A DNA stretch of 49,346 nucleotides, counting the filler, from Basidioascus undulatus (Eukaryota), in assembly GCA_000826855.1 (NCBI GenBank). It is 2 parts of 2 records of this genome, joined end to end, with 100 filler letters (N's around TTAATTAATTAA, not from the genome) between each part and the next. Parts side by side here need not be neighbours in the genome. Positions count along the whole stretch, not along the records: positions 1 to 30,077 come from JTLS01000430.1; 1 more part is not named here. One strand, 5' to 3'. Shown here in pieces: positions 481-36,979 of the stretch (positions are counted from its first letter, which is position 1; each line of letters begins with the position of its first letter). Below the pieces are notes generated by a model. That model was not told the DNA's origin. It made no database searches and saw nothing but the letters and a program-made list of their open reading frames with translations. Made by a program: the position numbers and the translations under genes.

Positions 481-1086
481 ATGGCCGACGCGTTCCAGGC
501 ACCGAAGGAAATCAAGGGGCGGATCATCTTGCTCGCTGGGGTGCGTCTTCCCGCTTCCCGCTTTCCCCCCGCTCCCTTCTCGTCAAACCGAAGGAGAATG
601 CTGTGAGTGGGATGGTAGATCGCTGATGTGGGCTTTTGGGTGGGTGGGACGTGCAGATCGAGGCCAAGCCCGGCAAGGGCGACGAGCTCGCCAAGATCAT
701 TGCGGAGATCCGCAAGCTCGCAGAGAGCTCCTCTGAGCCGGAGACGCACACGTACGTCTCATATCTCTCCCCCATCTCTCTCCTCCCCAGAAGGCTAATG
801 TGAGTTGTGGGTTGTGGGGTGTAGGTACCGCACGATCCGCGGCGCCGGGAAGGACGCGGACAAGTTCCGGGTGTTTGAGGAGTGCGTATTTTGTTGGGAA
901 TTAATGGAGGGAAGGAGAAGGAGAGAAGGGGAAGCTGATGCTGGGTGGGGTGGGGTGGGGCCGAACAGGTACTCGAACCAGGACGCGATCGCGCACCACA
1001 TCAGCTCGGAGCAGTTCGGGCGCCTCGCAAAGTCCGATTTGCTCGCTGGCCCGCCGTCGATCGAGTTCTTTGAAGAGTTCAAGTAG
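481..1086 (+). CDS. Small ABM (antibiotic biosynthesis monooxygenase-like, dimeric alpha/beta barrel) protein, 4 exons
   Basis: Introns 541-656, 752-824 and 882-968 (GT..AG, CTRAY branch) splice to an open frame MADAFQAPKEIKGRIILLAGIEAKPGKGDELAKIIAEIRKLAESSSEPETHTYRTIRGAGKDADKFRVFEEYSNQDAIAHHISSEQF...EFFEEFK*. AKPGK..EP..Y..F.vFEeY....A...H is the ABM pattern. Confidence 0.85.
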
Positions 1087-2592
1087 ACGAGTGGGGGTGT
1101 ATTTGGAGGGAGGTTGAATGGGTGGAGGTGGATAGAAATACGGACCGGACGGATGAATGAAGATGAAGAAGATAAGAACATGCGATGCGCTTTGTGAACT
1201 TCTCTGAGTGTTTGACGGACTGTTGGATCTTGATGTGTAGAGTAGCTACCCAAGTATAGGTGTTGATGAGTGAATGAGGGAGGGACAGACTGGGTCTGAA
1301 TGTGACAGGCAGAAAAGACTGCCGTGCGGTGAAGGGTGAAAACGCTTTGGTTCCACCCGCCCCCCAACCAGGCCCGTGAAAATTCGAAACGATAAAAGTG
1401 TGCATTTTCGTGATACGGCTTGTTCGAATACTTTAACACCCTCAGGTTATTGGACGTCGAGGTAACTACTGGGCAGCCGGTCTGCAAGTCTAAAAGAGTG
1501 CAGCGTATGAGGTGCAAGCGAAAGCTCTAGGTCACCATCGAATGCGACGGGAAATGAAGAGGCCAGGTATTTGACCCAAGAATTTTGCTTCAAGTGGTAT
1601 GAACACCTAGTTGCTGCCATGAAGCGGCGCTCGTATACTCGCCCAGCTGGACGTTGCACATGGGGAGCGCAATGACGAAAGACTGGCGCGGCGAACTCCG
1701 CGTATTGGCTTGGTTTGGGAATTTATAGATTCATCAGCGGATCAAATGGACTGGCGATCAAAGGGGCGGGAGGGAAAAGGCATCGCAACCATTGTTCGTT
1801 CCCAGCTCGTACTACGCCTTTCCCAAATCGAACCGTCCACACCCGGCCCTTCAACGTTGCCAACGCACTGTTGAACGACTGGCAACCACTCAGAGCCTGA
1901 GGGACATGGCAAACCTGTAGACTGTTTCGCCTCCTCTCCTCATAGAACTATCGCACTTATGCGCTCCGTGTGATGGGTGTGCCGACGAGAGCCGGAGCAC
2001 ATTTCGCCGGCATCCATGGGCGAGCAACTAACACGGGAGTTGTGATTTGAAGACGCTGAGTTCGGACAAGAACTAAGTGCCCGAGAGGCTCTGCGGCGTG
2101 CGTCAACTAGGACAAAGGAAAGGGTGGGCTGCGGAAATATCCCAAGAAAGCCTGAGCAATAAATTTGAAAGTTTTAAATTTATGCTCGAGCGGAAAGGTG
2201 TCGAAAGCAGAGCAGCCCACCACCCACAGCACGTTCAGCCCACCCCGGCATGTGCAGTCGGAACCGGGTTCTAACATTCTGGTAGCGGTTGGGCAATTCA
2301 GAACGATACCAGATTTCTCCACTACTAATTTGTTTGGTTTTTCTTTGAGTCGAGTTTGAGCACCATCGGTTCTGAACCAAACCAACGACGTCCTAGCCGG
2401 GATGGGAAGTTTTCCTCCAGCGCTAGGTGGGCTTGTCAAGACGGTTCCAAACATTTCACGAGTTCGGTTTCATGGCATTCCAAAGAGAGAGTGCAGTCGT
2501 GCAGCGCAGATCGGACTGAAACTGTCGAGGAAGAACGTCCGCCCAATCCGGCGTCGGCATCGAAAGCCAAGATGCATCAGAAGTAATCATAG

Positions 2593-3460
2593 TCATCGAA
2601 AAGTCCCCAGCGTCACCATCGGATCGTATCCGTAAAAAGGGTCCGCCTCCGGTCCCGACTCCTGTGCATCCGTGTCTTGTTCAGAATCGTCCGATTCAGG
2701 CCTGGGTTTCGAGAGCTTGACCACCAGGAGGGGAACACCGCTCGGGTCTTTGCGGAGGTGCTCCGCAAAGTCCATATAGTGAGAGCTCAGGCTCATTGGT
2801 TTGGGCAGGTTAACAACACTTGGCATGATTGGGCAAGACCGGGGGAGTAAGTTGAAGGCGCTCACTCGGCTTTGCGCTTTTGGAACTCGAAATGTTCCAA
2901 GAGGCTCCTTATCAAGCTACCGCCTCAGATCTCTTCGAAGAGGGTGTGACACGGCGGAGCGGATTGTCCGTTGAGACTGGTATGGATGGAAAAATCCTTC
3001 AGCAGACATTTGGATTCGATGCGGAGGCAGACACAAGGGATCGTGCACGAGCAACTTCTTCATATACCGCATCAAATCAGCAACAGTGACACCCTCCGGA
3101 TTCTCAACCTGTTTATATGGCAAATATGTCAAGCTAAGCCTCTCGGTACAATGAAATGTGGGACGAACCTCAAGGAACAGGTCGTCCTCCTCCAACAAGT
3201 CCCGATAATTGCCAGGGCAGATCACGTCGACTCTCACCCGCGTTAGGCCCGGGCGGGTGAGCAAGCCTCGCTTCGCAAACCGCGCGTCACGGGCCGAGCG
3301 AACCCAGGCTTTTTTGAGCTGGAGGTTGGCCGGCGAGAGTGGGGGCGCTTGAAGAGGTCATATAGCTTGATGGTGCTGTTGGCGATGAAGGGGTTCAGCC
3401 GCTTCGAGTAGGAGACGACGGTATCGGGGGTTGGGATCTCGGAAGCTGGAGAACTCAATC
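2593..3460 (-). pseudogene. Degraded hypothetical fungal gene (DUF6699-like pattern)
   Basis: Segments RLNPFIANSTIKLYDLFKRP, LTRPGLTRVRVDV and, after a GTTCGT..CAG intron, LEVENPEGVTVADLM resemble a common basidiomycete family. The first two segments are in different frames and no clean start was found. Confidence 0.4.
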
Positions 3461-4138
3461 TCAGCTAGAAGGAGGACGGTGGATCGGGTGGGAGATGAGG
3501 GATGCTATAGACAACGTACGGAACGCGACGTTCTTAATTCCGCCACGTAGCCATATCGGGCAGCCACTAGAGACCCACCAGCCCAGACCGCTCTCCACGC
3601 AACCTAATCCTCCTGATCACATTCACGAAGATCCTGAGAAAACCTTCCGAGTCCCCGCTCACGGCAAGGCATGCGTCAGATGGCCGCGTTGGAATCCGGG
3701 TGAAGCACTTCACGGGTGACGCAGCATGTTTTGTGCAACGACAGTAGATCGCGAGGAAATGTCGAGTTAAGTTTCGGTTGGCAGGTTGATCAATGAGGGA
3801 GACATATAACCACAGGAGTAAGATGGCGAACAAGGGAAAGAGGGGCCTGGCGCATGCGACGCTGCTTGTGGGACGGCGCGGTGTCAAACTTGCCGAGGTT
3901 GGCGAACAAGACACTTTATCTTAGTCTTGTCGTGTATGGTATGATTTAATGTGTCTCTTGAAGGCCTGATGCAGTGAAAGGGAGCCAGGCGAAAGCGGTG
4001 TTGCGATGGGAGATAAGGCTAGTGAAGGAAGGAATGTCCGGATGCGAAAGAAACGAGAGTGTTCCAGAGGAATGAGGAAAGGGGACAGGGAACTAAAAGT
4101 ATCTGAACTCTATCTCTAAGCAGTGTTGTAGGCGCAGG

Positions 4139-4616
4139 TTAAGCGCATCGGCACGAGGGGGCAAGAATGCTCTTGGTGAGGTTGAGCACGGCGAGAAGCC
4201 CGGCCTTGACGGATGCGAAGAACTTGACCCTGTGACGTCCAACGAAAGCTTCATTAGTTAAATACTCGAAGTGCACCTGCGGTCTGGTGGAACTTGAGTG
4301 CAACGCACTTCGCACCGATCTTCCACATGATGCCGTGCACGCAGCTGAGTCCGGAGAAAACGGAGGCGATGGACGTGCTGCAAGTAGTGCTATTCAGTTA
4401 CATGTTTAACGTATTAAACGGTCTGCCCAATGAAAGGGTCGAGTAGACTTACTCGAGGCCTGCGACAATGGTCTTGAATCCACCGATGCCGCCGGACAGG
4501 ACGTCGAGCTCCGCGCAGAGCTGCAGAGCGGACGCAACACGAAACGCAACTGCCCGCTTCAGTGCCTCTTGCAGCAGCACTGCTTCCCTCGGCGATCTCA
4601 CTGATGAATCCTGCAT
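4139..4616 (-). CDS. Small 3-exon hydrophobic protein, or orphan 3' end of a secreted-protein gene (absent from ORF track)
   Basis: Introns 4378-4452 (GTAAGT..CAG) and 4230-4308 (GTGCGT..CTAAT..CAG) give the open frame MQDSSVRSPREAVLLQEALKRAVAFRVASALQLCAELDVLSGGIGGFKTIVAGLDTSIASVFSGLSCVHGIMWKIGAKVKFFASVKAGLLAVLNLTKSILAPSCRCA*. The start is uncertain. Confidence 0.55.
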
Positions 4617-6515
4617 CTAAAAATGATCTTCCTCAGGGGGTCATTCAAAAGCCTGATTTGATTCGGCCTCGTGCTATCTACGCTGGTCGGCTCCGGTGGT
4701 GGAGTAAACTAGGCCTCAAACACGTCTGCAACTCAACATGCTGTGCTGTCAGATTACGAAGGGGTTGCATGACAATAGTCTTGTACACTCGGAATTGAAA
4801 TTAGTTCGGAACCATAAACAACTCTGCAGAAAGACCGACATGAGCGAGATCGCGACACTGGCTCGTCGAGAGAGCAAAATGCAACGTTTCAGGGGTTGCA
4901 TTAACCCCAGGTTACTCCCGAGATACTTTCATGGACCTATACATGACGCGATAGTTTTCGGTTATTGCATGCATTTGAATCATTTGATTTTGTTTCTCTC
5001 CGGAACCGACTGTACCTTCATGCATTGTTGAGATGCACGTCGGCAAGTTGCCATGGGGCAGAACACAGGGTGTTTCGCTGCGAGTGACCACCTCACTCCA
5101 CCAGCGCAGGAGCTAAAAAGGATAACAGGGAATAACCAATTCTGCTTCATATGATGCGTTCTTTGATAGAAACTAGGCAACTCTACAGTGGAAACAAGTG
5201 TAAGCATGTTTACTGTTAGAGTCTCGGAGAAGTATCAAGCAACGTGCACCGGTGGCGAGAGGTAATCGGGTGAAGATCTCTCGTTCAAAGAAATTATTCT
5301 CAGATATCTTGTCAATACAAGGGGGTTCGATTGTAGAATAGCCTGTCAAAGTCCTTCCGGCCGAGCGTTGCCTTGGGCGGGCGTGACCACATGACGAAAG
5401 TTCTGAACGCCTTTTGCACTGTTCGCTTTTGACAATTGCACAGCTCATAGTTCCAGTTAAGTACGTCCTGAAGTCACATTTCCCGGTCAGTTCGCCGGCC
5501 TGCACAGCCAACGCAGTTTTGCCAATCCCCTTCCTGTACGGCCACGGACCCAGTTCTTCCTGATTATGATGCTCTCTCTCTCTCTCTCCTGTGCTGACAT
5601 TGAGGTATATCACCTTCTGTGACGCATTCCTCATCGGCCGCAGGATTCAACAGCAGAATTCAGCATCACAGCCGCATCTTCGGCTAACCAGCAGCGCACG
5701 GTACAGCTGTTGCGCAGCCAGAGGCTGCGCGCCCACGCATTGGCCGCCAAGAGGAGCAGTGAGGTTGGGTTCGAACATTCAAGGATTGGAATAAGCCAAC
5801 CAAAAGCTCCTTGGATACCCGAATGTACTCCGGCGAGATGTCTGTGAAGAGGGAGTCATCTTGTCGCTCAGCAACGTCCCCACGCCTGTGTACTCTTCGC
5901 ACACTGCGGTGGTCCGTCTCCTGGTTTGTGGGCCGATTTTATCCGCTACACAGCACATTTCAAGACCTATGTTTATCCTGACCGGAGCCTTTTTTCTAGT
6001 GGGCAACCTCCTTGGTTGGTTCATCGGTGTTTTGTCGCCTCTGCGCGCCAACGCACGAGCCGCCTGGATAAGATTGCAAGCATCCAGCGACCTTCTTCAC
6101 AACACTTTCAATTGCTGTACAGCCTTCGGGCATAATATAATACAAAGCGCAGTTGAATTAAACCAAAGTCCAGATACATTCTGATCAGTACACAAGCTTG
6201 AATGCACAATCGGAATGCAATGTCCTCGGATATGGCTGAACCCATTTCCGGTTTGCCTGGCCGACCTACGATATCACTCTTAGCTTAACTCTCGCTTTCC
6301 AAGCGATCGCCATGACCTCTCAGCAGACGCTTGTGCTCGCTTATCCCAACAAATATCTAGTCACGGCGCATTACGGGCGGGGCCGGATCGATGCGCTGGG
6401 CTTAGTGCGCGCACACGGGCGTTCACCAACGCGCCAGACTTCGCGCTTGGACATATCCACGTTCCAGTGACTGCTCACTTGTGTGCACATCCTGTTAACA
6501 GTTCGCTACGAGGTC

Positions 6516-16770: not shown

Positions 16771-17640
16771 ATGGACCCAGCTACTTTCTCTCCGTTGGCG
16801 CGGACGCCGGATGATGTGTGGAGCTCAATCTCTCCGTCGGCGAGCCGTGACGATGCGAGCAAGCGTACTCTCGACGCTTGTTTCGCGTTCAACGGCAGAC
16901 GCCCCGAGTCAATCGAACTCATCAACCCTCATCAACCGCTGCAGTTCGTTGCAAACTGTCGTTGTGCGCGTGTCTCCTTTTTGCAACGGCGCCGATCCCA
17001 TGCTTCGCCGTTGTGGCTGCCCAAGCTTGTGTCACTCACGGTAGGCCGGCATTTTCCGGTTAGTTTGGCGAGCACGACTTCCTGGCGAACGCATCGTTTC
17101 CCTGCCTTCGCGAGCTGAAAGTCGATCTTGACGGATTCGAAACATCCTTCCCGGTGCTGGAAGTGTTGGTCCACAAGTACGGATCCGCTCTGATTAGCGT
17201 CGTACAAGGACTGGACTCCGACCTCCCCGCTGTTGACCGCAACGCCCCGACATTCTCGAGCTCTCCTTGAGCTCGTATTCAACCGGTACCGTACCGCACG
17301 ACCTACCGGATCGATTCCCGCACCTCTGCACACCAGTCTGGGTTGATTCTTTACCAGCAATCTCTGTCTCTCCAGCAATTCCTCGAAAAGTTGGGCGATC
17401 CCAGCTCAAGGTCATTCGACTCATTCACTTTAACTTTCCTGATTTCGTTTGGGTCCGATCCAGACTCTTTTTATTCTGGGGGCGATGGGGGAACACGCAC
17501 TTCTTCTTAACGGCATCGCTTCCGAAAAGGGCATCCCCATCATCGACTCGCACTGTCGGGACATTGACGGGTTTCGGGTCTCGGTTGTGCGAGTCGGGGA
17601 GGGATACCGAGTGGAACGAAACGACCGCCTGTGAGGATGA
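16771..17640 (+). pseudogene. Second F-box/LRR-like gene relic
   Basis: LARTPDDVWSSI (F-box-like start), then LRR-like pieces LPKLVSLTV, PCLRELKVDL, FPHLCT, SQLKVIRLI spread over all three frames. Confidence 0.45.
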
Positions 17641-17937
17641 ACTTCGCATTTGGAAAAGTATGTCGCTACGTCAGTGTCTTTCAGGTCTTCGCAAAGTTTG
17701 CACGCCTGCTGGAGAGGATGCAAGGAACCACTCTCCCTTTTCCCCGGACAAGTTCTCGGCCACGGTTTAGCTTGCGCTTCGAGTTTTCGATCATAAGACA
17801 CGCTGCTCAGGCGTCCTCTCACGCCTAGACAGTGCGCCGCGTGACACAAACACCCGCAGTCAAGCGCAAAAAGTTTACTCGTCAAGTGGGGAATGCGAGA
17901 TGCATAAATGTGGACCACACGACGCCCGCCCCGGCAA

Positions 17938-20900
17938 TCATGCCTGGGCGCCACCCAGCCCGTTCTCCTCAGCCTGCATCCAGTCGTCTGCGAGTGCCTT
18001 CTCCGCCTCTTCCAGCAAGCCCTTCACCCCGTCCGGATCGCGCCCGTTGCCTTCGAGGTAGTACTTGATCTGTGGACCGTCCCAGAACGGTCAGCAGACA
18101 TGTCGAGCGGGTTACACGTAAAGATATAGGAGCGAACCTTTGGCTCGGTCCCGCTCGTCCGGATGGTGAGGACGAAGCCCTCGCCGGACTCGCACTTGCC
18201 GGAGAAGGTGATCCTGAGATTGCGTCAAGTGAGCTTGCGAACGTCTAGGCGTGTCTTGGAGGAACTAAATCGCACATGTTTCCAGAGGAAAGCGGCAGGA
18301 CGGGCTTGTGCTCGGGCGCCAGTTGCGAAGAGTCGTACGCATATCCCTCCGTCAAATCCCGCACAGACTGAACAGGGAACGGTCCCAAACGAGTCGGGTA
18401 TCCCTTCCCCTCCTACAAAACCCCATCATTCCCCATGAGTAATCATCCCGCCCCCAAGCCCTGCAAAGGCGTGCGCACCTTTGACATCGCCCGCAAGCGA
18501 TCAAAAATGCGCTTGGTGACGGCGGTATCGGACGAGCGGAAGTAGCTGTTGGAAGTGACGAAGTAGCCGTACTTCTCGTACAGCTCGCGGAGGTGCTTCA
18601 GCGGCGAGGACCCGCGCGTCGCGAGGCGCGCGGCGAGTCGGACGAAGGCGATCGCGGCAGTGATGCCGTCTTTGTCGCGGATGTAGGGGGAGACCTGGGA
18701 TGATGTCGGCTGTGAGCGGAACAATCAAATGAGGCAAAGTGGTGAGTTGTTAACGGACAGCATAGCCTGCGGTTCGACAGCTGTGTTAGTAAAGGTAGGC
18801 AGTAAGAAGTAGCTTCGACTCACCGATCGCCTCCTCATACAAGAAATCGACGCTGTAGCCCTCAGCCTCGAGCTCTAGTGCCCGGTTCCCAACTGCGCCA
18901 CAAACCGTCAGCACGTCCGCATCGCCGACCAGTCCCCATGGAGCGTGACGCACTGTACTTGAACCCCGTCAAGCAGTCCTCAAAGCGGAAGCCCTCCTTC
19001 GCCGCCATCGCCCCGAGCATTTTAGACGATACGGTCGAGGCGACCATGGCGAGTTTCTCTGCTCCCAGTTCGCATTCCCGTCAGCCCTCCGCACCCCGAC
19101 AGGGATGGGAGAAAGGCGATAGACCTATTGGCTTCCCCTTCTTCCGATACTCCTCCAGCGTGAACGACGCGAGCAGCGCCCCCAGCTCGTCCCCCGTGAA
19201 GATATGCCAGCTCCCCCTGCTCGTCCCCCCTCATATAAGCATCTCACAGCGCAGCGGTCCGACGTCGCAAGTAGGACTTACTTCGTCTTCTCAGCGGCGA
19301 GGAAGCGGTCAGCGTCGGGGTCGTTGGCGAGGATGAATTCCGAGTCGTTCAGCTCGGCAGTCTGGAGCGCGAGCGACTGTCGCACCCGCCACCCAATGCA
19401 GTCAAGTCAGCCACCACAGCGAGAAAGCGCGCAAGCGTTTGGGTTTCACGCACCAGAGCGCCCTTTTCTTCTGGGTTGGGGAACGCAAGAGTGGGGAAGT
19501 CCGGGTCCGGATCCCGCTGTGCGCGGACGGAGTGGAGCGGAGGGAGACCGGTGTACGCGAAGGCGCGCGCGATGCTCAGGTCCCTGCAGTAGCCATGGGG
19601 GTTGAGCTTCGTCGGAGGATGGTTGAGTTGGCGGGCAGGGGTGACGCGTACGCAAGTCCGTGGAACGCAGTGTGCGTGAGCTTGAGGTCGACGTATTCCT
19701 CTCTGTATCCCAGGCTCAGCATTCAGCATGGCGTTGGCACTCGGAAGCCGAGGCGACGCACGGCGGGAACAAGGCAGCTATGTGCGAGTGGTACTCGTAG
19801 CGCTGCGGACCCACTCAGCGTCAGCTTTGTTGCCTGACTCGTGAGAGTAGTTCGGGGACCCACCATCACGTTCGTCTTGTCCTCGCACAGTGAGTGCTCC
19901 CTGACAGTCTCCGCGTCCCAGGCGCCCTCCTCCGGCTCGAGGTTGTCGTTGATCGCTTGGGCGATCTGGCCGTCGAAGGGGGGTATGATCTGCACAGCAC
20001 TGCGTAGCTCAAAGTCATCAGACTGCTGCTCGGCCAGATGGGAGAATGGGAACTGCTGTACTTCTCGTAGTAGACCTTCCAGCCGTTGTCCTCCGCAGGG
20101 TTGTGCGAGGCTGAGAAATGCAGCGCAGCGCTCAGCAGACCACGATCCGGCCGCGGTGCAGAGATTGATGCTCACCCGTCACCATCACACCTCCCACAGC
20201 GCCGAGCTTCTTCACACCGAACGGTACGAGCGGCTGCCCCAACCCCAGCATGAGCCTTCCCCGATCCAAGGAAGACGTCAGACCAACGCACCGTGTGAAC
20301 CACGCCCTTGAAAAGATACACCCGGATGCCCTTCAGAAGGAATGCGCGGGCCGTCAGGTTCGCCCAGCGCTCAGAGTTGTGTCGGTGGTCGTGTCTGAGC
20401 GTCATTCAGCAAGGTCAGTAACGCGCCAGCCGCGCAGCAAAGGACCAGGGCAGCTGACCCGACGACCACACCGCGCTTAGCTGCCTCGGGGAGTGTGGAA
20501 AGGTGTGCAGCGAGACCCTGTAAAGCGCCCCGCGATGATCAGATCAAGACGCTGCGACGCCTGAGAGCCCAGGACAGAGCGTACTTGAGCGGCCTCTGCA
20601 TATGCCCGATTGGTTGAGCTCCCGCACGCTCTTGCCTTAGAATCGCAAGCTACGCACGGATAATGATGAGGTCGTTCATCCTCGCCCAGCCGCCCTCCAT
20701 CTTCGCCCTCAGCCCTGTTTCCTCATCCACCAACATCAGGGGTTCGTCCAGACTAACAGCATACCACCAACCCAGCGTACTCACCTGCCGTCCCAAACTC
20801 GATCCGCTTGCCCATCCTCCGCTCCAGCTCGTCCCAGTCTCCATTGTCCCACAGCTGCTGGATCTCGCTGCGGGTAGTCGGGTTCTGCATCGATCGAAAG

Positions 20901-21018
20901 GCAAAGGCACGGGCATAAGCATGCCGAGCCTCCGAGCGCTCGGTGGACAGCGAAGACGTGCCTTGTCAAGGCGCAGCCAGTCGGCGACGAGCTTGTCTAG
21001 GCGCGCGGATTGCGGCAT
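17938..21018 (-). CDS. PGM2: Phosphopentomutase / phosphoglucomutase-2 family (yeast PRM15/PGM3-like), many exons
   Basis: Spliced motifs EFGTAGLRAKMEGG, GHDHRHNS, VMVTASHNPAEDNGWKVY (catalytic Ser), FPNPEEKGAL, ANDPDADRF (metal loop), LTGFKYIGN, YEEAIGY, DKDGITAA, RTSGTEPKIKYY. Confidence 0.93.
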
Positions 21019-21427
21019 AGTGTCAGTGAAAGTGAGTATGTTGCTTTGAGAGTGATAGTCTCTATGCGGGGAGGACGTCGGCGGTGATGGCGGCGAGAGG
21101 AGAAGACGGTCCGGGTGGAGAGCATGCGGGGTTCAATGACATCGCGACCGGCGACAGCTGATCGGCCGGGCCCGGCTTCTGCCTCGGCTGAGCTCGGAGG
21201 TACTGTACCTACTGTAATTGCCGGTGGCTACCCAATTTTTGTTCCTTGAAAAGCTTCACAACAACGATTTTTATTTGTAGATCAAACACCTCAAGCTCAT
21301 TAGGGGAGGAAATTTATACGATATTGGGAACTGGAAGCACGCAGAAGGTCTGCAAATGCCCACAGGAAGCTGCGGTACCTGCACAATGACTTCTCAATGC
21401 GACAGCACTTCGGGGCAACAGCGTAGT

Positions 21428-22130
21428 TATCATCAGGGGTTCGGTGGGAGTTTAGACAGCGTTCCTTGGTTTCGAAACATGCGGTATCTTTCGAAAGGTT
21501 TCTTATACATTCTTTTCTTCTGCCTGACTTTCTAAATCTTTCTAATTCCTATAGTGTCGATTCCAAAGCTTTTCAAACGTATGCCCTTGTTTCTGATTTG
21601 ATGAGAAAGGTTGCAGGCTAAGTAAGGGATAGTTTCCTACTGTCCACATGCAGGTGGTCGGGTAGGTTCAAGTGTCGAATTGACCAGTTGGAGGGTAAGT
21701 GTTGTCTTCTTCAGATATGCGCACACCGGCAAGGGCAGTCGATTACTGTACCAGCAGCCTGAACAGACCTGCTGCGCTGTAGCTGACGGGATTTGGGGGT
21801 GGAGGGGGAGCTTAGACCGTTCAACAGTTCTCATACACCGTTCCTTTGTGCTTGGTCTGAGAGAAGGTGCGCACCTGTCTTCTAGTATGTGCACCAGAAT
21901 ACTCCGCTTTAAGAAGGCAGGAGGGGTTGGGGACAAATGTTCCCTACAGCATCTTGATCCAAAGAGCATCAAATGGTTCAGGACTTTCGACTTGTGGATA
22001 TTGATAGGCTACAGGCGTGGTCATGCAGCAAAGGCCTTTCGCCATCATCACTCTACTCGGATGTAGTGCCGACACTAAGTGGACGGGCTGCTACCCTCAG
22101 ATACCTTATTAACGTCAACCAAAAGAGCTA
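21428..22130 (+). pseudogene. Multi-exon hypothetical gene relic
   Basis: Four GT..AG intron-like segments delimit 24-, 41- and 39-nt exons that join in one frame (..VSFESVDSKAFQTWSGRFKCRIDQLEVLIHRSFVLGLREAS*SKEHQMVQDFRLVDIDRLQAW..), with one TGA at 21955-21957. Ends approximate. Confidence 0.35.
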
Positions 22131-22941
22131 GTATTGATACTGCTAGAGGGTGGTCAAGGAGCTCTTTACTCCTGGCACATTCCCACTCAGTGTTAGCTAG
22201 AGGTGCAGTTTCGTACCAGTCAATTTGATAAATGACCCATCAAGTTGGGCAGCGTTGAATGCAGACGAGCCACTGCAGAGCTCAGATTTAGCTGTTGACT
22301 GCAATCCAGGGTCAGAGGGTCTCTGACGATTCACATTGAAGATTATACACCGCCAGATCCTCGGAGGTCCTCACGCACAGATGCGAGTTTGGGCATCCCT
22401 TGACGAACTTGCGAACAAGTTCAGGACATTCAAGGACATTTCCCCTGAACCGGGGCCGTAAATGGTGCGGCATATGTTCTGCGGTGCTCAGCTGCGGCGA
22501 ATGCTTGGGAAACGCTTTGAACAAGGAGCAACCAGAATTTTCGATATTCGACATGCATCGAGGTATGGATCGTACCGCTGATACATGCCTGCAAGTTGAC
22601 AACTCGAATGGACAGAGACGGCACCGCAGACTGTCATACCTTAGGAAGTGCTCAGTTGACTTCATGCTAGCTTGCCAAAGGATCCTTGTGAAGGAAGAGC
22701 CCTAGCCGCCTCTCTGCCTGTCCTGGCGACAATGCGACAGAGCCTACATGTCTAACAGCCGAGCAAGTGATGCAAGCCAATGAAAACCGGATTTTCTGTT
22801 CACACTGGTCAGTATGTGGTCCGTTCAGTGAACAATGTGTGCAGCCGTGCAAACTTCAAAGTCCCAGGGCAAATGTCTTGCGCAAGAAAAGAAAAAGAGG
22901 GGGGTACATGTTGGAAAAAGGTCGGGCTGTTCTGACAAAAT

Positions 22942-24574
22942 TCAATGGACAACAGAGTAAACTTGGAAAGTGATGTTCTGGCTGCCGGGTACAAGAGTTT
23001 GAAGCGTGAAGTTGGGGACGGTGCGTGAGGTCTTTTCCGAAGAAATCCAAATCACACCTCGGGCCCTCACCGTAGAAGCGGGAATCGAAAATAACTCGGA
23101 AATGAACACAAGGAAGCCCAAGCGAAGGATAAGCTGAGAACGCGCCTTAGACGAGTCCTCGCCTGGGAAGACGCAAACGTTTTCATCAGTCTGCGCAGGC
23201 CAGGCACCTGCCGTGCAAGTAAAGGAGTCAAACGACACTCACTGCTTTTGATTTCCCCAACAGTGAGCTCTAGGAGACCGTTCTCCAACCTTCCCAAGCC
23301 CCGGGCATCAACCTCAAAACCATCCTTCCCGAGCTCGGCGCCGACGTTGAGACGCTGACGGACGGCGGCAGCGATGAGAGTAAAGGTCTTTTTGTCGTTG
23401 CCCTGCTTCAGGATCTCGCTCTCGACGCGGCTCCTATTGAAGTTGAACGTGAGCCAACGGATGCTCTGGTCCAAGGAGTAAGGAGGACTATTCCTTACGA
23501 GTTGTTCATCCTCAGCCATTTATTCAATTGCTGGCCCATCTGCAACGGGGGCTGAAAGCCTCTCACACCGGCTTTGCCTTCGAGGTATCGCAGGGCATCA
23601 TCCAGGAGGGTCTGTAGAAGGCAAAAAATTAGCTGGAGCCGACTCTGCGGTTTCGACTCTAGGAGAAGGATGTTTACCGTGTCCGACAACAGCTTTTGCG
23701 CAACAAGCGAGCGCACGCCGTGGAACACCTCTTCCGCCCAAAGGTCCGCAGCGTTGGGCGGCACTGGCTGAAAAAGACTGTGGTTATGAGGCGATACGGT
23801 GTACTTGTCAATCACTGTATCATAAGACAAGCGGGATATACGCACTACCGCACGTCCCAAAGCACAGCGTCAGGAGACGAGTTTACTGCTTTCTCAAAGA
23901 GGCTACACCAAGAATGTGGCGTAGTATGCCATCAGTCATTGCACAAGGCCAGGTAAACGGGAAAGAAGGAAGAGGGAAGCGCACTAGAAGACGTCCTTCC
24001 ATTTGGCCCACATTGTCCCAACCATGTTCGGGTATCCAAGATATCCATCCACCGTAGGAGGGCGCCGAACCCACTGCTTCCACTGCAAGCTGACCTTCCT
24101 CTGGCTTTTAGCGATTTGAGATCGCAGGTCCGCAGAGATATAGTGCCGCAGCCATCGACATGCCTGGAAGAAAGGGTCGAAATGCGAGAAGAGCACCTCC
24201 TCAAGCACAAGGGGACGGATCGTGCGGAAGGCCCATTTGCCAAGGTCGATCAACAGCAGGCATACGAAGGCACAGGCAAGGAAGAAAAGTTCAAGGTAAA
24301 CGATCGGCGCAATGAGTGACACAGTGAAAATGGCCGCGACGCCGCGACCGAGGCCCTGCGTCCAGTCGCGACGGAAGAGGCCAAGCAGGACACCTATTAC
24401 CGCGAGGAGGAGGTAGCTACACGCGTAAATGGAGAACGCAGAGAGCCAAATTTTTTTGTCGAAGTATGGCTTGCAGAGGTCCTGACATTTCGATGTGGTG
24501 GCTACGGCCGCATCCATAGCGGCGGACAGAACGCCCAATGCGGCGTCCATCGCGGCGGCCAACACGGCGGCCAT
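22942..24574 (-). CDS. About 423 aa, 6-exon protein: two N-terminal TM helices plus C-terminal PD-(D/E)xK nuclease-like domain
   Basis: Introns 23903-23984, 23778-23845, 23612-23677, 23434-23498 and 23163-23242 are all GT..AG; exons total 1272 nt with no internal stop. Hydrophobic IWLSAFSIYACSYLLLAVIGVLLGLF and VAAIFTVSLIAPIVYLELFFLACAFVCLLLI. C-terminal FEVDARG..LELTVGEIKSSEDSSKARSQLILRL..RGVIWI. Confidence 0.75.
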
Positions 24575-26023
24575 GAAGGAGGCGTTCTGGCAAAGGAGGG
24601 GAGATTGGGCGATGTAGATACCGAATTGATGGGGAATCGATCGACGATATATGCCTTGCGCGAGGGCAAAACCCGAGAGAGAATACGAGTGAGAGTCGAT
24701 AGTGCAGAGAATCGAAAGCCAACGAAAGCCTTGGCAGAAAGGGGAACTCGAGGAGAGTGAGACGGTAAAGAGCAAAAGGATAAGGGGTTCGAGGGGTCGA
24801 GTGGTCAAGGAATAGCAAGGAGGAACAGCATGGTGAACACTTGGGAACCTCGTGGTGCGACGATACACGGCATAATTTGTGTCACCGGCTGTGTCGCTGC
24901 CGCTTTCTTTGTCCGACTTTCTTTGTTCTCGGAGCCTCATCGCAGGCTGACCGTTCTCCGCCCCTTTCTGATAGTCATCATCTTCTTTTTAAGCTTATCT
25001 GCAAGTTCCTTGAACGGGGCCAGACCATAAACGGCAGGACCGAGCGTTCGCGCGGGAGCTCGCTGTGTTTGCCAGTCAGTTCGAACCCTCGCTCGTTCAC
25101 GCCACTGAGGGGAGAACAGTTCTGCTCGGCTGTAGTTTGGGTAGATTACCATTAGTTCTACCGCAAATCTGTATGGATGGCAGGACACATGACACTGAGG
25201 TCGATGTGGAAGTCGGACGGGTTGGCGAGATACTACATGATGGGCTGCATATATCGAACTCCAAGCCTAGATATCAAGACGCAGGCACCCAAAAATTTCA
25301 AACGCTGCTCAACCCTTCTCAATTCAGCCCCGAGGCATTGGGTTGCTCGTGAGAAGCAAGAACACAGGCACGGGTGGCTGCGGCAAACCCGCAGACGTTC
25401 ACGTTCAAAGCGCCTTGTGATCGGCACCGGTTGACCTCTGGCGGATCCAAGCAGATCAGATTTGAAATTTGCTTCATAAGGAATCAATAAAGCCACGAGT
25501 CTGGAGGTGATGTGCAACAAGTTTGACAAGTCATTGTCTGTCCTTACAGAGGCACGAGTATGCATCACCGTAGCCACGCACACTTGTCTGTGCCGCCTCC
25601 CCCCGCTTCCATACTTGACAAACGTTTTGTGGGACACCAACGCTATCCATTACCGTGCCGCATTAACTTATTCCAGCTCTTCAAGTAGGCCCAGGCCCAA
25701 ACCCCTACCCCTCAACCCTCAGTCCCACTTGCAACAGCTTTCCTCTCCATTCCCATCCTTGCCCACAGCACAGTTCAAGGTCACACGCGCCCCCATAGCT
25801 ACCCCACAACTCACAGAAGCAGCCCCATACGCTTCCACCTCAGACCAGCGGCTCAGCCCCCAGCAAACACGCTCACAAACCCAAACGACCCCCGATCTTG
25901 GAATCCGAACTGGTATATATGTATATCCCCTCCCGCCCCCCCGAAAGAGTGGGCAAAGGTTATCGAAGCGAATAAAGCAAAGCAAGCACAGCGAAAGTCC
26001 ATCCCAACTGAAGCGAGGGCAGA

Positions 26024-28012
26024 TCACTTGCGCTTGTCGAACGCGTCCTGGAAGGACTTCCAGAGGACGGAGAAGAGACTGTTTGGATTGAGGGTTGATC
26101 AGTCGTGACACGGGAAGGGAGAAGAAAGGGAGAAGACGTACATGCCCTGCAGACCATTCGTCAAGATCCGAGCTGCCCGCCGCAAGCCGTATCAGTATCC
26201 TAACCAACCAACGCAAGCAGAGGGGTGGTAGGGGGGAAGGATGGGAAGGGAGGAAGGGAGGAAGACGTACTCTTCAGCCCCCGCCCGAACAGGCCCACCA
26301 CACCATCCTTGGCGACGACGTCCTTGACCGCCTGCGCGTACGACACGCGCACCTCGTTCGTCTGCCGGTACGTCTTGATGACGCGGAGCGAGTTGGAGAC
26401 GGAGTCGGAGACGACGGAGGCGGCGAAACCTATTCGACCATGCATACTCAGCCCTTTAGTTTCGGGGGGAGCGGAAGGGAAAGGAGGAGGGGAGGAAAGC
26501 AGGGGAGAGGAAGGTGAGACGCACCGATGACAGCTTGACGACCAAACTTCTTGAGCTTCTGCTCGGCGGGGGGGACGGGGATGGACTCTTGCACTGTATT
26601 GTTCCGATTGCCCTCATCCTCACATCAGCCACCGCGTTCTCCCGAGTACAGAAGAGGGAGTGGGAGAGAGTGGAAGGTTGTGGAGAAAGAGGAAGACGCA
26701 CGGAAGTTGTAAGTCGCGAACCAGGGGTAGTGGCCCGCGAAGGTCGCGGCGGCGGTGGCGGTGGCCTATGCGTTTCATCAAAATTGGCCCCGTCAGTCAG
26801 ACAGTTTATTAAGGAGGTAAGGGAAGAGGGTAGGCAGGGGAAGAGCGAGAAAGGAGGGAAGACGTACGCCGTAGAAGAGGGATTGGGGACCTGGTTTGAA
26901 TGATTTTCGAGAAGGCGGGTTCAAATAAGTAAGAGGTTCGCGTGATTAGGCTAGGAATGCATGGTTGTGTCGAAAGAGAAGACGCTGAAATGCAGTCGCC
27001 GTCGCCTTCCACCATCACGTGCTGTCTCCCCTGGGTCGTTGCGCAATACCCCACCGCCTCCATCTTCATCTCCCATCTCGAGGAGGACCACCCTATAAAG
27101 CGAGCAAGGGAAGACAGCGAAACGAAAGGAGGGAGAAAACGCACCATTCACCCGAATGCGCTCCTTCAGAATGCGCGTCCCTTCCTTGCCCTGCGTCTGT
27201 AGCGTCGTCTTCAACTGCATTCCGCGTCCACCATTCACCCATCCCCCATCCTGCATCAGCACCCTCCATCTGTCTCCTCTCCTCCCCTCTCTCTCGGACG
27301 CACAGTGTCAATGGGCGTGAGCAGCATCCTAAAGCACGCGCTCGCGGCAGACGCGCCGATCGTCTTGACTGCCACGGGCAGGGACTTGGCCGTCTCGTTC
27401 GAGTCGAGGAAGGCGAGGATGCCCGCGTTCGCGGCGGTGTCGCCGAAGCGGGAGACGGGGCCCTGGATCAGGGCGGGGGCGATACCGCGGTCTGTCGAAA
27501 GGGGGGCGGGGCTGTCAATCTTCAAACATAGCGCAGTGAAGGCAGGGGAGAAGGGGTGAGGGGAGATGGGGAAAGAAGGGGACGGGGACGGGGAGGAAGT
27601 GGGGGAAATGGGAGATGGGACGGACAGAAACGGAAGATCCCCCCGTCGCGGTAGAGCGTCTTGAGCGCCTCGGTCGTTCCCATTCCATAGCGGTATTGGT
27701 AGTTCTGTGTTCGGGGCCAATCGTGAGGAGGAAGAAGGCAGGGGAGATGGGAGATCGAAGAAGGCAGATGGGAGACGGACCATCGTAGTCCGCAGCGGCA
27801 TGAGCGTCGCTACTTGGACGACCATCGCCGCGGCGCCTGATCACCCGCGCATCCCATCCCACATCAGTCCACTCCAACCCAGAACACAGGATGCATAAGG
27901 CTGGAAGGGGAAGAAAGGACAGACCGGAAACACCGCCCCCGAGCGCGCGCTTGAGCGCCTTGTCGAGGTCGAACTGGGGCTTGGCTGCAGGTGCGGCGGT
28001 AGTGCTAGCCAT
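26024..28012 (-). CDS. Mitochondrial carrier family (SLC25) protein, multi-exon
   Basis: Three carrier repeats: LMPLRTTMNYQY, LTPIDTLKTTLQ, SNSLRVIKTYRQ; also YRGIAPAL and GLFGRGLKTRILTNGLQG. Starts MASTTAAPAAK, ends FQDAFDKRK*. Confidence 0.92.
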
Positions 28013-28581
28013 TTTGTTGTTTGTCGTTACGCGATGCGTAGGGGGTGGGTGGAGGGGGATTGAGGGATGTGGGAGGAGGGCAAGGGAGCGTGTGTGCGTT
28101 GCGCAGCGAGTGACGAGGGGTGGAATGGAGATTGCAACACCGGGCGCTGAGGGCGTACTCGGCTGTGTGTTGGGATTGCCTGGGTGGGTGGGTGATTGCA
28201 AGTTGAAACGAAATGAGGCTAAGCTAATAGGCCGCTAGCCCGTTTGGTCCCGGGATGAGTGTGCTCCGGTGGAGGGAGGGTGATTGAGAGAGCCGAACAT
28301 CCCCGGTGTGATAGAGGAGGAGGTGTTGGCGAGCAAGTTGGAGGCGTCTTCTCGCTTCGGGCAGTGTGGGCCGGGCCGGACAGAGCCGCTTTCGCCCGCC
28401 CGCCCGTGTGTCTTCTTTTGCCCGACGTCTTCTCTCCCCGCTCGCCCGCCCGCGGATCACGGAACCCGAATCCGAATCCGAGTCTCTCGCATCCCCACAG
28501 CAAGCGTCTTCCTTCTCTCTCCCTTCCTCTTTCCCCTCTGCACCCCCTCGTCGTTGGACCCCCGCGCTCCCCATCACACCC

Positions 28582-30077: not shown

Positions 30078-30177
30078 NNNNNNNNNNNNNNNNNNNNNNN
30101 NNNNNNNNNNNNNNNNNNNNNTTAATTAATTAANNNNNNNNNNNNNNNNNNNNNNNNNNNNNNNNNNNNNNNNNNNN
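30078..30177. other. Assembly spacer N44-TTAATTAATTAA-N44 (not biological)
   Basis: Symmetric 100-bp pad whose 12-mer has stops in all six frames. Genes on both sides are cut. Confidence 0.97.
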
Positions 30178-31867: not shown

Positions 31868-34800
31868 ACTCGTCGCGGTGGCGTGTCGTTGCGATGTTCA
31901 AAATACGAAAGACCGCCGTATGTGAATTGGGTGATGATGGTGCTGGCTAAATGCGTTACGTTCGATGTCGGCGGCGAAAGAGTCGCGAGGGGGGAACACG
32001 AAGACGCTCCCTCGGGCTCGAGATGGCTTAGTCAGCACTACACCTTGCTTTGGGACGCGTACCGGACGCGACGCGATTCCTGCACAATTTCTCCGGTCTA
32101 CTTTCCGCAACGCACTCAAAAAACAGACTGTGGCCGTTCGTAATCCGTGCAGGCTCCGCGATCTGGAATTATAAAGCCCCAACCTGCATAATAGTGCACC
32201 TGGGTGGTCAACTCGCAGCGAGCGAGAGCGCGGTAACGTCCAGGAAAGTGGCTGCAGCTTGCAATTCTGCAGGAGCGCAGGAGGCCAAGGGCAGTCCGAT
32301 CACCTCGTGTCAGATACCGGAGGAGGTGTTGAGGGTCAGCGCGAATCCGGACTGCGTCTTCTCTTAGAGATCCACGTGTTGACAATCGCACAGGTTCCTA
32401 GCTTCGCGAACAAGGCGCAGTCTGGTGTCGGGTTACCACTGAGTTGTCCATCGCAAATATCACAAAGTTTATCTGGGCGCACATAATGGAAACATCCAAC
32501 AGCACAGCCGCGTCAATTCTCAATAGCTGGAGAACAGAGAGCGCGAGGTCCCCCTATCCATCGAATGACTCTTCTGTCGTACTGGGCAGGCTAGTCAGCA
32601 CAAAAATACCTTCCAAACCTCAAGGATGAAGGTGATGAGCTCGCTGGGCGTCAATTGGCGCCTCGGCCTCGGCATGGCACGATGCCGCAAGCGGGGTGAG
32701 GGCGACGCTTCTACTGGTGATATTCCTTTGCAAGCTGGAAAATACAATGATGTATGAAGCGGGAATGGATCAGCAAAGCCTAGTCATAGTTATCATTCAC
32801 AAAGATTTACAGCTGTACACGCTGACTGCTGTTCCACCCACGGCCATATGCTTCCTCCAGTCTGCATACTTCGTCGAACAATCAGCAGTCTTCATGAAAA
32901 TCAGATATTTTTCGAAAAACAATTTCGTGGTACGTGGGCCAAACGCTCATCAGCAAGATCACAAATCGATAAGACTCCGGTTGGCACGCTTCTTTTGCGA
33001 GCACCCTGGTGACAGGCTTGATCAGAGACGCGTTCGAACGACCGACGTACTGTATTCTTACTTCTTAGTCCAAAGGAGCAAAGACAGCTTGACTCTAGGA
33101 CGAGGCCACTCCGTGGCTATCCGCCGCGAGCACATGTGCATCGGTTCACCTTTCACGAAACTTGTGTTCCCCATTGTGTCTGTTGTGTCTGTCATGATGG
33201 CAATATCGCTGAGCAGGGAATTCCCGTCGTCCAATGTGTCTCCCACCTGTAGCTGTATTATCGGCGCTTCCGGTATGCTATGAAGGACAACCGGACAACC
33301 AAAGCGAGATGATCGAAGGTGTTGTTTGTTTGGGGAGAGTACGTTCCTTTTCCCGTTTCCAGAATTGTCATATACTGGACACAAAGCGGTTAAAGAAATG
33401 AATGTATGATTGGGAAAGTTCAACCGCTGGAATACAGGGAATACATCGCCCCTCTGCCTCCCTGCTGCTCGACACAATGCCTAGCAGGAAAGGAAGCAAC
33501 GGACGGACGAGACAGGAGCTCGTACTCAAAGTGGTAGTCGGGCTTAGTTGCCTGTAGGTCCTATCTGTGAGCGGTGGTACCGGAGTACGCCTGCCGACGG
33601 GTTGGCTGAGCTATGGCAGAAGCAAGAGGCAGTGCGGCAAGAAAGCTGGCCCTGCGACAAATAAGATGACATCTGGGAGGCTCGAGCAACTCATAATCTG
33701 TTCGAGATCCTTAATGAAAACCCCATTTTACTGGCTTGTATCCTTCGCCGAAATGATAGTTCATAGCGAGGATGAAGGTGTCGCAGTGAGAGTCCACGAG
33801 ACATGCCATGTCAGTCAAGCTCCATGCCCCGAGGGGATGAGGGTCGCATCTGGTCCGGAGACTGTCAGAGCGATTTGGAACTTCTTCATCCGATTGAGGA
33901 AGAAGACAAGGCAATCGCGCTGAGCTTGAATAAGCAGCGGGAGGGACTGCGACTGCGACAGCTGAGATAGCGATCGTGAGCTTGTCCGCTTCGGGGCGGG
34001 GGCACATGTCTTGTAACTCCCTCAAATGTAGAAGACGGATAAGAGAGAAGATGGAATAATTTCCAATAAGTTCCCGAGCTTGACCAGCGCTTCGCAAAAC
34101 ACTTCAGACCCCTCTGCCTACTTTCAACTCTATGCGTAGCGAGCACTGCGTGGATCGTTGTAAGGTGCGACTGTAGTTGCACGTAGCTCTTTTGCAGTAA
34201 ATCTAGTATAAATTACGTGGTTCTCGTCCCTTTATGTGCTTTCCCTGTCAGTCTCAATTCGCGCGGAGGTCGAAGGAAGACTCTGGCTGGACTTTCTCTG
34301 GCTCAGTTGACCCCTCACAAGGCGACACCCGGTCGCCACTCTGTCCTTTCGCCTTCAGATAGATTCATTATAATTTCTTTATTCTATGTTATCAGATCCT
34401 TACCGCTTCAAATTACACACAGACTTGATATCTGATGTGTGCGTTTGTCTGTGTACAGCTACGCAGCTGTGGTCGCCCAGACGGTTGTTTCGAGCAGGAT
34501 GGTAGTGAGTGGGAAGAAATAAGCCTGAATCATGTGGGATTATCGAGCATTGGACTAGATTGTACTGAACCTCAGGTCGAGTGCCGATACGAGAGGAATA
34601 ATCATGTCGGTCCATTTATGAGCTCTACGGTTTGGAGCGGATCCGCACCGGGCCAACATATTCACTGGAGCTTGACCCTGGCACTGCCTATATTATGAAA
34701 TCTTAAGGTCCCAGAACACTTTCTGTGTTCCCCGTAAGCAAACTCATGATGAGCTTTGAGGAAGGCGCGATGGCTGTACTCTGGCTGTTGTGACCCTGCA

Positions 34801-36979
34801 GGCGGGCCATCTGGGAGTACCTTTGTACGCAAGGTCACGGCCAGAAGTTGGGCAATAATCTGTCTTGCACGTTCTCCCAGCAGAACTGCAAATAAACCAC
34901 AATTGGTTGCACCCAGAAGCACATCCGTTTAAGAGAGAGGACCAAAAGATGCACATGAGGCGTGATGAGGAGGTGTGTTTGTTGAGAGCGGCAAGTTCCC
35001 GCATATCTTGTCGGTTCGTCTTGGTTCGTCCAGCTCTCCAACATTCACTTCCTCTCGACGGCGACGATGGCCGCCTCCGATGAAGGTCAGGGTCTCACTA
35101 GACTTCCGCGCCCCCTGGAATGCGGAAATTGTCCTCTTGCATTATCCCGTGCCCGTAGACCTCGAGCACCACCCCTCGCCTCGCGTCCGGAGCGCCATCC
35201 TCATCCCATTCGACGTCCAGCCACGATAACGAGGCCTACCACGCTCTCGTGTTCGGTGCCAATAATGAGGAGGACAGGTCTGGGACCATCACTTTCTTCC
35301 CGCTGTTCCCCGTACCTCCGGATGCGACCGGCGTATCGCCGCACACCGCCTCCTTTCTACCTCTCTCAGACGGCGCGCACCCCCAGCCTAGAGCCCTCAC
35401 GACTTTGGCCGTTCCCTACGCCTGCTGTGAACTGAGTTGTTTCGGTGTTGGGAAGATACTTTTTGCTGCAACCAATACACTCTTGCCCTAGAACGTTCTT
35501 GCTGAGCGGGAGGCTGAGCGGGCTGCCACCATCGGCCGGGACTTGGCTGCGCGCCTGGGCGACTACGGGCAGACGCTGCACATTACTGTCCCGCCAAGCG
35601 CTTGATTGGTATTAATTATGCTTCATTATTAAATATTTACTGCCCTGGGATCAGATTAACGTCTTGCGAATGAGCGGATACCTCGCTTGCGCCGTCTTGG
35701 AATGCAGACGCGCAGTGCCTATTCAGACCTTCTCGAGATTCACACTCTCCACATCGAGCTCATTCGTAGACTTGGATAGTCAGGCTGGTTCCTCACTTGG
35801 GGAGGGTGGCGTTGCGTCGGGTCCCAGACGAGACACATCAGAAGACGTGCAAAAGCAGAGTTGCACGCTCTTACATCTTGAAACGCTGCCGCCGGTCGTG
35901 CTGCGTCAGGTTCACGTTCCGGGCAGACCACGCACCCAACTGGCACCATCAGCACTCCAAAGTTCCTACGCGTCTATTCAATTGTTCATGTAGCCCAGGC
36001 CCTTCCCCCTTTCCCCTCCCTCTACCCCTCCGCCCACCCAGCACCCACCTTCTCATCCCCCTCGCGCTGCGTTCTGAGCGCTTCGCAGAGCTTTGAACAT
36101 ATTGAATTGTTAGTGAGCTAGGCTTCCATCAGCTGACGAGACCGTGAGAATATAGCTTCAAAGTTCGCGAATGGCAGGACTGCAGAATATTTTCCAGCAT
36201 TGGTCGACCAGTTGAACACGGGAGAGATTCTTTCTCGCACGAGGCATGCAATCACCGTCAACTCAACGGAGAAAACCCTCACAGGCGTGGTACAAGGACG
36301 CGGTCCTGGGATGCCGACGTGCTCGGAGCTTTGACCACGCGTGGCAGGCTGAGCTGGAATCCCTCAGGCACCCGCGAAGGACAATCGATGTTCTCCTTTC
36401 CGTGATGGTCTACCTTTATGAGTGTATGTAATGTCTCATCATGGTAATGGATGCGTAGAGTGAAGGGCACTCAGTGCACGCAAAGCCAAAAAGCCAAAAA
36501 GCAGATTACCTGCTTTCTGTCGTAGACCTGCCATTCTCTTCGGCTTCCTATTATATCTTGCAATAGGCAACCAGTGCAACCAGTTTTATTATTGGCCATT
36601 ACCTTCACCAGTTGGCGTCGAGCAGCGCTAATACAGCCGCGAGCAGAAAAAATCAGCGACGCGCTTGATCGACGCGTCACCGACTTTGCTCCTTCAACTC
36701 CTGCGCGTCTCCTTGCCCTCTTCCCCCACCGGCCCTTTGCGTTTCTTCGCTCCTCGTCCCACTCGGACATCGTTTTCGTCCTCGAACCTGCTTTTCCAAG
36801 GCGGAAAATCATCCGAACATCTCGTTCAAGTCCACGCTCGCTACTTCTGTGCGTTCGTCGCTGAGCTTCTCGAGCAACACGCCGGCGAGCACGCGCGCTG
36901 ACTTCGGGACCTTCTCTCGCGCTCTCGCCAGATCTCGTCTGACCTGCAGCCCTCCCCTCGCTAGCCCCGCTCTATCATC

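Follow-up and report, generated by a model that had tools for sequence, protein, structure and literature searches.

Within the window, by which we mean the whole stretch of 49,346 nucleotides analysed here from the 32-Mb assembly of Basidioascus undulatus, a host with short introns, the minus strand between 24574 and 22942 carries a gene of 423 codons. It consists of six exons that together yield 1272 nt of spliced sequence with a single terminal stop (TGA) (Table 1). The five introns (82, 68, 66, 65 and 80 nt) are all of the GT..YAG type with a branch-like site, and their signals are like those of 14 introns in the neighbouring gene, which measure 58-77 nt and all end in CAG or TAG. The gene is the sole occupant of a 4.9-kb gap in which GC is lower, with flanks at 49% and 53% GC against 61% in the left neighbour, and its own GC3 is 0.67, compared with 0.75-0.96 in exons nearby. 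Bordering this gap are a phosphoglucomutase-like gene, recognised by eye (no Pfam match, three exons), and a gene for a mitochondrial carrier (PF00153, E 0.0016). A previous reading of this DNA from its sequence alone (hereafter the sequence-only reading) had described the gene as the intact member of a block of decayed accessory genes. No gene relic could be recognised in the flanks, where two ORFs matched only themselves or antisense by chance; the decayed genes are the gene's own paralogues, described below.

Several other features of the window were recorded. About 100 bp at 21431-21541 recur twice in the genome (on C2839 and C403, at 80% identity and likewise at low GC), while long frames scanned in the low-GC stretches 1000-6000 and 32000-36500 gave no Pfam matches and the stretch 2593-3357 (-) resembles a small intron-split orphan gene. 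A single N lies at 10887. At 30078-30177, where contig C2360 ends, 12 bases stand between two runs of 44 N, and the sequence beyond them belongs to another contig.

Table 1 Features of the gene (positions in the window; aa, amino acids of the 423-residue product)
Feature	Position	Strand	Basis
5' UTR (extent of X3 contig)	24575..24804	-	X3 contig; 230 nt without ATG
Exon 1, aa 1-197	23985..24574	-	3' end given exactly by X3 contig
In-frame ATGs of exon 1	24574, 24550, 24517	-	sequence
Hydrophobic stretch 1, aa 43-67	24448-24374	-	Kyte-Doolittle
Hydrophobic stretch 2, aa 79-112, then basic linker	24340-24239	-	Kyte-Doolittle
Intron 1, 82 nt, phase 2	23903..23984	-	gene model and X3 contigs
Exon 2, aa 197-216	23846..23902	-	model; 86% identity to C2760 copy; X3 depths
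Intron 2, 68 nt, phase 2	23778..23845	-	model and X3 depths
Exon 3, aa 216-249	23678..23777	-	model; EEV helix kept in all 3 copies
Intron 3, 66 nt, phase 0	23612..23677	-	stop-free in frame; removed in X3
Exon 4, aa 250-287	23499..23611	-	model and X3 depths
Intron 4, 65 nt, phase 2	23434..23498	-	model and X3 depths
Exon 5, aa 287-351, candidate catalytic half	23243..23433	-	motifs and copy comparison
Exon 5 residues E293; E320; E327-V-D329; E347-I-K349	23417; 23336; 23315-23307; 23255-23247	-	
Intron 5, 80 nt, phase 1	23163..23242	-	X3 piece end; 91% identical to C2760 copy
Exon 6, aa 351-423 and stop	22942..23162	-	copy comparison
3' UTR (extent of X3 contig)	22885..22941	-	X3 contig

Three sequencing runs (X1, X2 and X3), none of them recorded as RNA, were examined over 17500-28500. 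Introns are missing from the contigs of X3: of the 15 joints listed, 14 are CT..AC skips of 58-77 nt in the neighbouring gene, none of which is present in X1 or X2, from which we infer that X3 is RNA-derived. It comes from the same sample as X1, from which the assembly may have been built. Over the gene itself, letters 1-820 of an X3 contig of 1238 nt correspond to 24804-23985, stopping at the exon-1 boundary, and its total length (820+57+100+113+148 = 1238) places its end at 23286, a position at which the DNA contigs break as well. In a second contig of 351 nt, letters 1-277 correspond to 22885-23161 and the remaining 74 letters fit 23162 followed by 23243-23315, again at the DNA breakpoint. 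When all splice combinations were compared with the X3 depths, 2/32 (removal of introns 1-4 or of introns 1-5) matched the six bin depths with zero error, the next best missing them by 25.7; because an X3 piece ends at 23161, retention of intron 5 is excluded and the five-intron model was chosen. The inner boundaries of introns 2-4 are set by summed length, to about 1 nt per bin, rather than read directly. The DNA runs X1 and X2 pass through the introns ungapped (23286-24074 in 789 letters), and X3 has no differing letters at the places listed and no cover over 21537-22637 and 24840-25940. The gene is expressed with the splicing that the model predicts, and the intact, stop-free frame of about 423 aa across five introns proposed by the sequence-only reading was reproduced, with its junctions borne out by the intron-skipping contigs. 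Although X3 had been guessed to be DNA, its cover on window 17886-28314 makes it usable for other genes of the genome; within the phosphoglucomutase-like gene, for example, X3 joints with 7 and 11 intervening letters (18694-18823 and 20517-20658) mark micro-exons.

The two N-terminal hydrophobic helices claimed from sequence correspond to hydrophobic stretches that are indeed present at aa 43-67 and 79-112, with 19-residue Kyte-Doolittle maxima of 2.4 and 2.8, respectively. Both are flanked by basic residues, and the length of the second may allow one pass, two passes or a hairpin. The extreme N-terminus (24517-24574, -) contains AAAMDAA twice, giving three in-frame ATGs, and the start of one of the other copies (C2252, below) corresponds to one of the later ATG positions. 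In addition, exons 2 and 3 (23720-23930, -) start alike, each with a phase-2 intron within a Tyr codon followed by Leu-Phe. They may represent a tandem exon duplication, a weak likeness also reached by 138/5000 protein shuffles and 209/3000 DNA shuffles; the C2252 copy apparently has one intron fewer in this region.

Exon searches of the genome recovered two further copies of the gene, on contigs C2760 and C2252, together with a fourth match (C2122, E 0.04) that was put down to chance. The three copies are dispersed, in low-GC gaps, and the duplicated unit comprises the gene and a short upstream stretch without its neighbours; none of the three loci has convincing terminal repeats. The window copy is the sole clearly intact one. 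The C2760 copy shares 75% DNA identity with it, has more than 10 non-triplet exon indels, and keeps 5/5 acceptors and 3/5 donors, with introns 1-4 at 56-74% identity compared with 77-86% for exons 2-6. Two of its frameshifts are seen again in the DNA runs, one shared by X1 and X2 and the other in X2, and are therefore not assembly errors, and this copy is clearly dead. Between the two genes, dN/dS is 0.52 (codons 67-423, 326 codons, p 1e-4), and in exon 5 alone, where dS is low, it is 1.06. Identity across 23098-23395, from late in exon 5 through intron 5 into the beginning of exon 6, reaches 86-98%, against about 72% elsewhere. Given the similarity of intron 5 and the low dS of exon 5, a recent exchange between the copies is suggested, and gene conversion across the candidate active site is possible.

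The C2252 copy is much older than that on C2760. Its likeness is concentrated at the C-terminal end, where two segments matching aa 288-423 have 30/61 and 28/68 identical residues (58/129 overall; 0/500 shuffles each). It is weaker over aa 131-287 (0-14/500 shuffles) and not significant over aa 1-130 (9/27 identical; 329/500 shuffles), and yet this copy also has two hydrophobic stretches despite its unlike N-terminal sequence. At its last junction the homologous donor is out of phase, and a stop-free path through it requires at least two AAG acceptors, whereas the reference introns use CAG or TAG in 19/19 cases, so that the copy is probably broken. Tail to tail with it lies a seemingly fragmented piece of an F-box-like gene, recognised by eye and without a Pfam match (L011, 3941-4790, +).

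Searches outside the genome used single exons of 63-196 aa as queries. Their sensitivity is low, and distant relatives could for this reason be missed. A word-index protein search with exon 5 (112-2000 aa, 334 candidates) and two with an exon-1 alignment (longer and near) returned no relative, and an exon-5 profile run with HMMER against 1.84 billion representatives gave one match, an ankyrin-repeat protein judged spurious. No relative was found with single exons in metagenome, viral and prokaryotic-genome scans, or in plasmids and phages up to an E of 10; PDB sequences gave no match to a single-exon query, and Pfam, PHROGs, PADLOC and NCBIfam hold no family matching exons 5 or 6.

In the canonical PD-(D/E)xK site, as outlined in PMC3424549, an Asp starts strand 2 and a Glu-x-Lys lies in strand 3, often together with a Glu from helix 1. 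The E-V-D (23315-23307) and G-E-I-K (23258-23247) motifs are located as the sequence-only reading had them, and D329 and E347-I-K349 follow in this order, 18 residues apart, on a strand assignment that is pattern-based. The whole series is spaced E293-27-E320-9-D329-18-E347 and K349-11-Q360, compared, by eye, with 24, 9, 14 and 10 in a corresponding NucS locus (L140). Exon 6 would supply a helix with A357..Q360-L, after which come an ARG-hydrophobic strand and, towards the C-terminus, another conserved strand. For motif I, the Glu of WAEEVF had been suggested. This segment (E231/E232) is too far away, 97 residues before D329, and would be better read as a linker helix, while E293, 36 residues ahead of D329 (33 in the NucS locus), appears the better candidate. 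Comparison of the three copies shows that E320, E327, E347, K349 and Q360 are kept in 3/3, that position 293 is acidic throughout (E, E and D), and that G-E-I-K-S and A..QL are retained across the deep split to C2252. Of the candidate catalytic residues, E347 and K349 occur in 3/3 copies and D329 in 2/3, with Asn in C2252; the two copies other than that of the window are dead or probably broken.

Statistical tests of this likeness gave a mixed picture. A motif pattern written post hoc, after viewing the sequence and after a stricter first pattern had missed the window protein, matched the window protein, 14/14 NucS, 1/68 Mrr/YraN/NERD and 1/11 YhcG sequences, as well as 0/86 control domains and 172/20000 shuffles. 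The ESM features of exon 5 pointed in the same direction, since the ten rows listed were all restriction-endonuclease or unnamed clusters, some of them of SacI, Mrr or AlwI type. The top score was 0.84 (recognition 2754), and the best 10 named matches fell 10/10 in one clan. This best value lies below the lead threshold of 0.9, and a third of shuffled proteins reach 0.8 with one-clan agreement; the features of exon 6 gave no match. None of five local nuclease HMMs (NucS, 14 sequences; Mrr, 22; YraN, 30; NERD, 16; YhcG, 11 of 13 loci) scored the spliced domain above shuffles, the best scores being equalled or exceeded by 124 and 167 of 1000 shuffles, and three control-fold HMMs likewise did not. 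Profile-profile alignment of the spliced domain with hhalign gave probabilities of 0.07-1.1%, comparable to those of controls and reversed input. Of the mixed sheet of four strands between two helices that marks the superfamily, AlphaFold models of single exons (pLDDT 46 and 54) gave, at low confidence, a hairpin within exon 5 and a helix where exon 6 begins, and Foldseek searches with these low-pLDDT folds found no match. The restriction-endonuclease fold of the sequence-only reading is therefore upheld in part: motif order and ESM features speak for it, while profile and fold tests were null or uninformative and D329 is Asn in C2252. From the motifs, we consider such a fold plausible and indeed probable for the C-terminal domain, and judge that the domain may well hold an active site, with the balance tilting slightly in favour.

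The best reading of these data, which we advance tentatively, is that the gene encodes a membrane-tethered conflict nuclease subject to birth-and-death evolution. Two or three N-terminal hydrophobic passes would hold the protein in an internal membrane or the cell membrane, from which a helical linker would bear a minimal C-terminal PD-(D/E)xK domain (aa 288-423). There, D329, E347 and E293 would bind Mg2+ and K349 would position water, while the A..QL helix would touch the substrate and nucleic acid would be cut with little sequence preference. The anchor would keep the nuclease away from chromatin, so that the cell could make the protein without an antidote, and would place it where foreign nucleic acid enters, be it viral RNA, linear plasmids, or the DNA of a partner or an intracellular microbe. 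Under birth and death, copies would settle in the gaps of low GC that separate housekeeping genes, with the anchor diverging fast and most copies dying. A tethered nuclease would explain why the gene is expressed although no antidote is linked to it, why a conserved catalytic end is joined to a fast-changing anchor, and why copies have died repeatedly. The conflict-nuclease reading is supported by the finding that the C-terminal domain is the part conserved against C2252, whereas aa 1-130 are not, as well as by splicing, the overall dN/dS, the kept motif residues, the NucS-like spacing, the post hoc pattern match, the clusters reached by the ESM features of exon 5 and the precedent of COG4741 (below). 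It is weakened by the null profiles, the sub-threshold ESM result, the Asn at position 329 and the exon-5 dN/dS.

In the strongest rival reading the domain is inactive, being either a lineage-specific alpha/beta domain with a chance likeness to the motifs or a catalytically degraded restriction-fold module that would only bind nucleic acid or protein at the membrane. We regard this as rather unlikely. Every profile test was null, the D to N change falls in the sole deeply diverged copy, conservation peaks in a stretch (AAAVRQR) that is no catalytic motif, and the motif-pattern test was post hoc; however, G-E-I-K-S and A..QL survive the deep split, and the Asn may postdate function since C2252 is probably broken. 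Moreover, according to the account of the superfamily in PMC1189080, Asn or Gln variants exist among its members and sequence profiles often miss the distant ones.

A selfish killer, whether a meiotic driver or a toxin-antidote gene, would combine a nuclease poison like that of Spok with a membrane protein of the wtf kind and add a protective alternative isoform, a combination that strikes us as improbable. Dispersed copies and pseudogenes are also seen for Spok and wtf, and the high-identity tract around exon 5 and intron 5 suggests recent exchange between copies. Upstream of the gene the frame remains open for 138 codons (24575-24988, -), a length rare in shuffles (115/20000, and 367/20000 block shuffles); it has an in-frame ATG at 24940 and includes a PPxY-type motif (24823-24812) of the kind that PMC10721834 describes in wtf antidotes. 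Such a motif arises, however, in 1328/20000 shuffles; the extension lacks a codon-position pattern against C2760 (27/33/25 mismatches) and is unmatched in both paralogues; the X3 contig begins at 24804, short of the upstream ATG, although contigs cannot show starts; and the protein has neither a kinase nor a cysteine-cluster resistance domain.

We consider two further readings very unlikely. As an organellar housekeeping nuclease, the protein would process mitochondrial RNA or DNA in an organelle membrane, much like RRG7, which is a minor family (17% of members) in one of the ESM clusters, and the gene is transcribed in X3 together with its housekeeping neighbours. Against this, exon 5 has no relative in the 1.84 billion representatives, the three word-index searches were empty, the paralogues are dead, the N-terminus is unconserved and, by the charge criterion for presequences, aa 1-42 with their 4 basic and 4 acidic residues are unlike one. 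A mobile-element endonuclease, or its domesticated relic, that copies itself through the genome would suit three dispersed copies in low-GC gaps and a duplicated unit that excludes the neighbours, and PMC5289972 links Crinkler nucleases to transposons. Terminal repeats are nevertheless unconvincing at all three loci, the copies keep their introns, which speaks against retroposition, transposition sits badly with a membrane anchor, and just 3 copies were found. Scarcely to be expected is a single-gene fungal selfish element or immune effector of a new class, a membrane PD-(D/E)xK nuclease with toxicity governed by its location and with a condition-specific long isoform (ATG 24940, PPxY) that serves as antidote; if true, it would be the first eukaryotic membrane-tethered PD-(D/E)xK protein and would combine the nuclease of Spok with the isoform logic of wtf.

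Returning to the membrane-tethered conflict nuclease, its layout, which the sequence-only reading took to be uncharacterised, is known from prokaryotes, where PMC1189080 describes a membrane helix joined to a PD-(D/E)xK domain in COG4741 and RmuC, and proposes COG4741 as a membrane-bound guard against foreign DNA. COG4741 (PF10107, Endonuc_Holl) has an N-terminal membrane helix and a minimal C-terminal core with E-(V/I)D-E(V/I)K. It was represented by one member among 42 genomes and is comparable with the window protein by layout only: as far as described, it is prokaryotic, short and has one helix, whereas the window protein combines 2-3 passes with a linker of 175 aa, and its single exons did not match PF10107 at E up to 1. 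RmuC (PF02646) similarly combines a membrane helix, a long helical region and a nuclease domain (PMC1189080), but is described as bacterial and conserved, with a coiled-coil linker, and the window exons have no Pfam match. In the case of NucS/EndoMS (PF01939) and YhcG (PF06250), the likeness is one of E-D-E(I/L/V)K order and spacing, a G/AxxQL helix and a G-hydrophobic strand, all seen by eye, without a statistical match by HMM or profile-profile comparison and without the N-terminal domain of NucS. NucS is moreover soluble. A PF01939 search of the host genome gave no match, and the local NucS HMM scored -0.7 bits, a value that 167/1000 shuffles reach.

The Crinkler-type effectors invoked by the sequence-only reading share with the window protein a eukaryotic C-terminal domain of the restriction fold used in conflict (CR-REase), but as characterised in PMC5289972 their header is ubiquitin-like and their partner domains are mostly NTPases or kinases, only one header (Angomonas) being hydrophobic. 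The 423-aa protein lacks the LxLFLAK header and HVLV motif, its exon 1 has no Pfam match and no NTPase or kinase Pfam domain was found in any window exon; membership of this group thus falls away. Spok proteins reportedly kill by disrupting DNA. They had been overlooked, although Spok is a PD-(D/E)xK killer of Ascomycota whose nuclease domain is needed to kill and whose copies are dispersed and include pseudogenes; it differs in its coiled coil, cysteine cluster, kinase resistance domain and length of about 700 aa, with no anchor in the description given in PMC6660238. The window protein stops 74 residues past K349 and has no cysteine beyond aa 139, so that the C-terminal features of Spok are absent. 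The wtf drivers of fission yeast, which are not known to have a nuclease domain, form a two-isoform system in which alternative transcription starts give a long antidote and a short poison. For the gene studied here there is one RNA-derived run with a contig from 24804, in which a long isoform was not seen. The two are alike in being a multi-copy family of multi-pass membrane proteins, to which a possible PY-motif N-terminal extension may be added here (PMC10721834). Tdk1 (DUF1773; PMC11551393) was considered as a further comparison and dropped.

Taken together, the orphan gene family is real and its putative nuclease domain credible. On the features tested, the protein falls outside Crinklers, Spok, NucS and PF10107, although by analogy it may work like COG4741. 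The literature searched, in which subscription journals are thinly covered, yielded no fungal membrane-anchored PD-(D/E)xK member, and the architecture supplement of PMC3424549 may hold one. Genes of this kind escape annotation because introns separate the catalytic motif from the helix that follows it. If the fold holds, this would be an expressed, intron-rich fungal membrane-anchored restriction-like nuclease, unrecognised by the family libraries and collections searched, and would join Spok on a short list of fungal conflict nucleases. For the guard role proposed for COG4741 in 2005 (PMC1189080), a fungal example accompanied by dead sister copies would then be a small and tractable system in which to ask whether tethering is by itself enough to spare the host.
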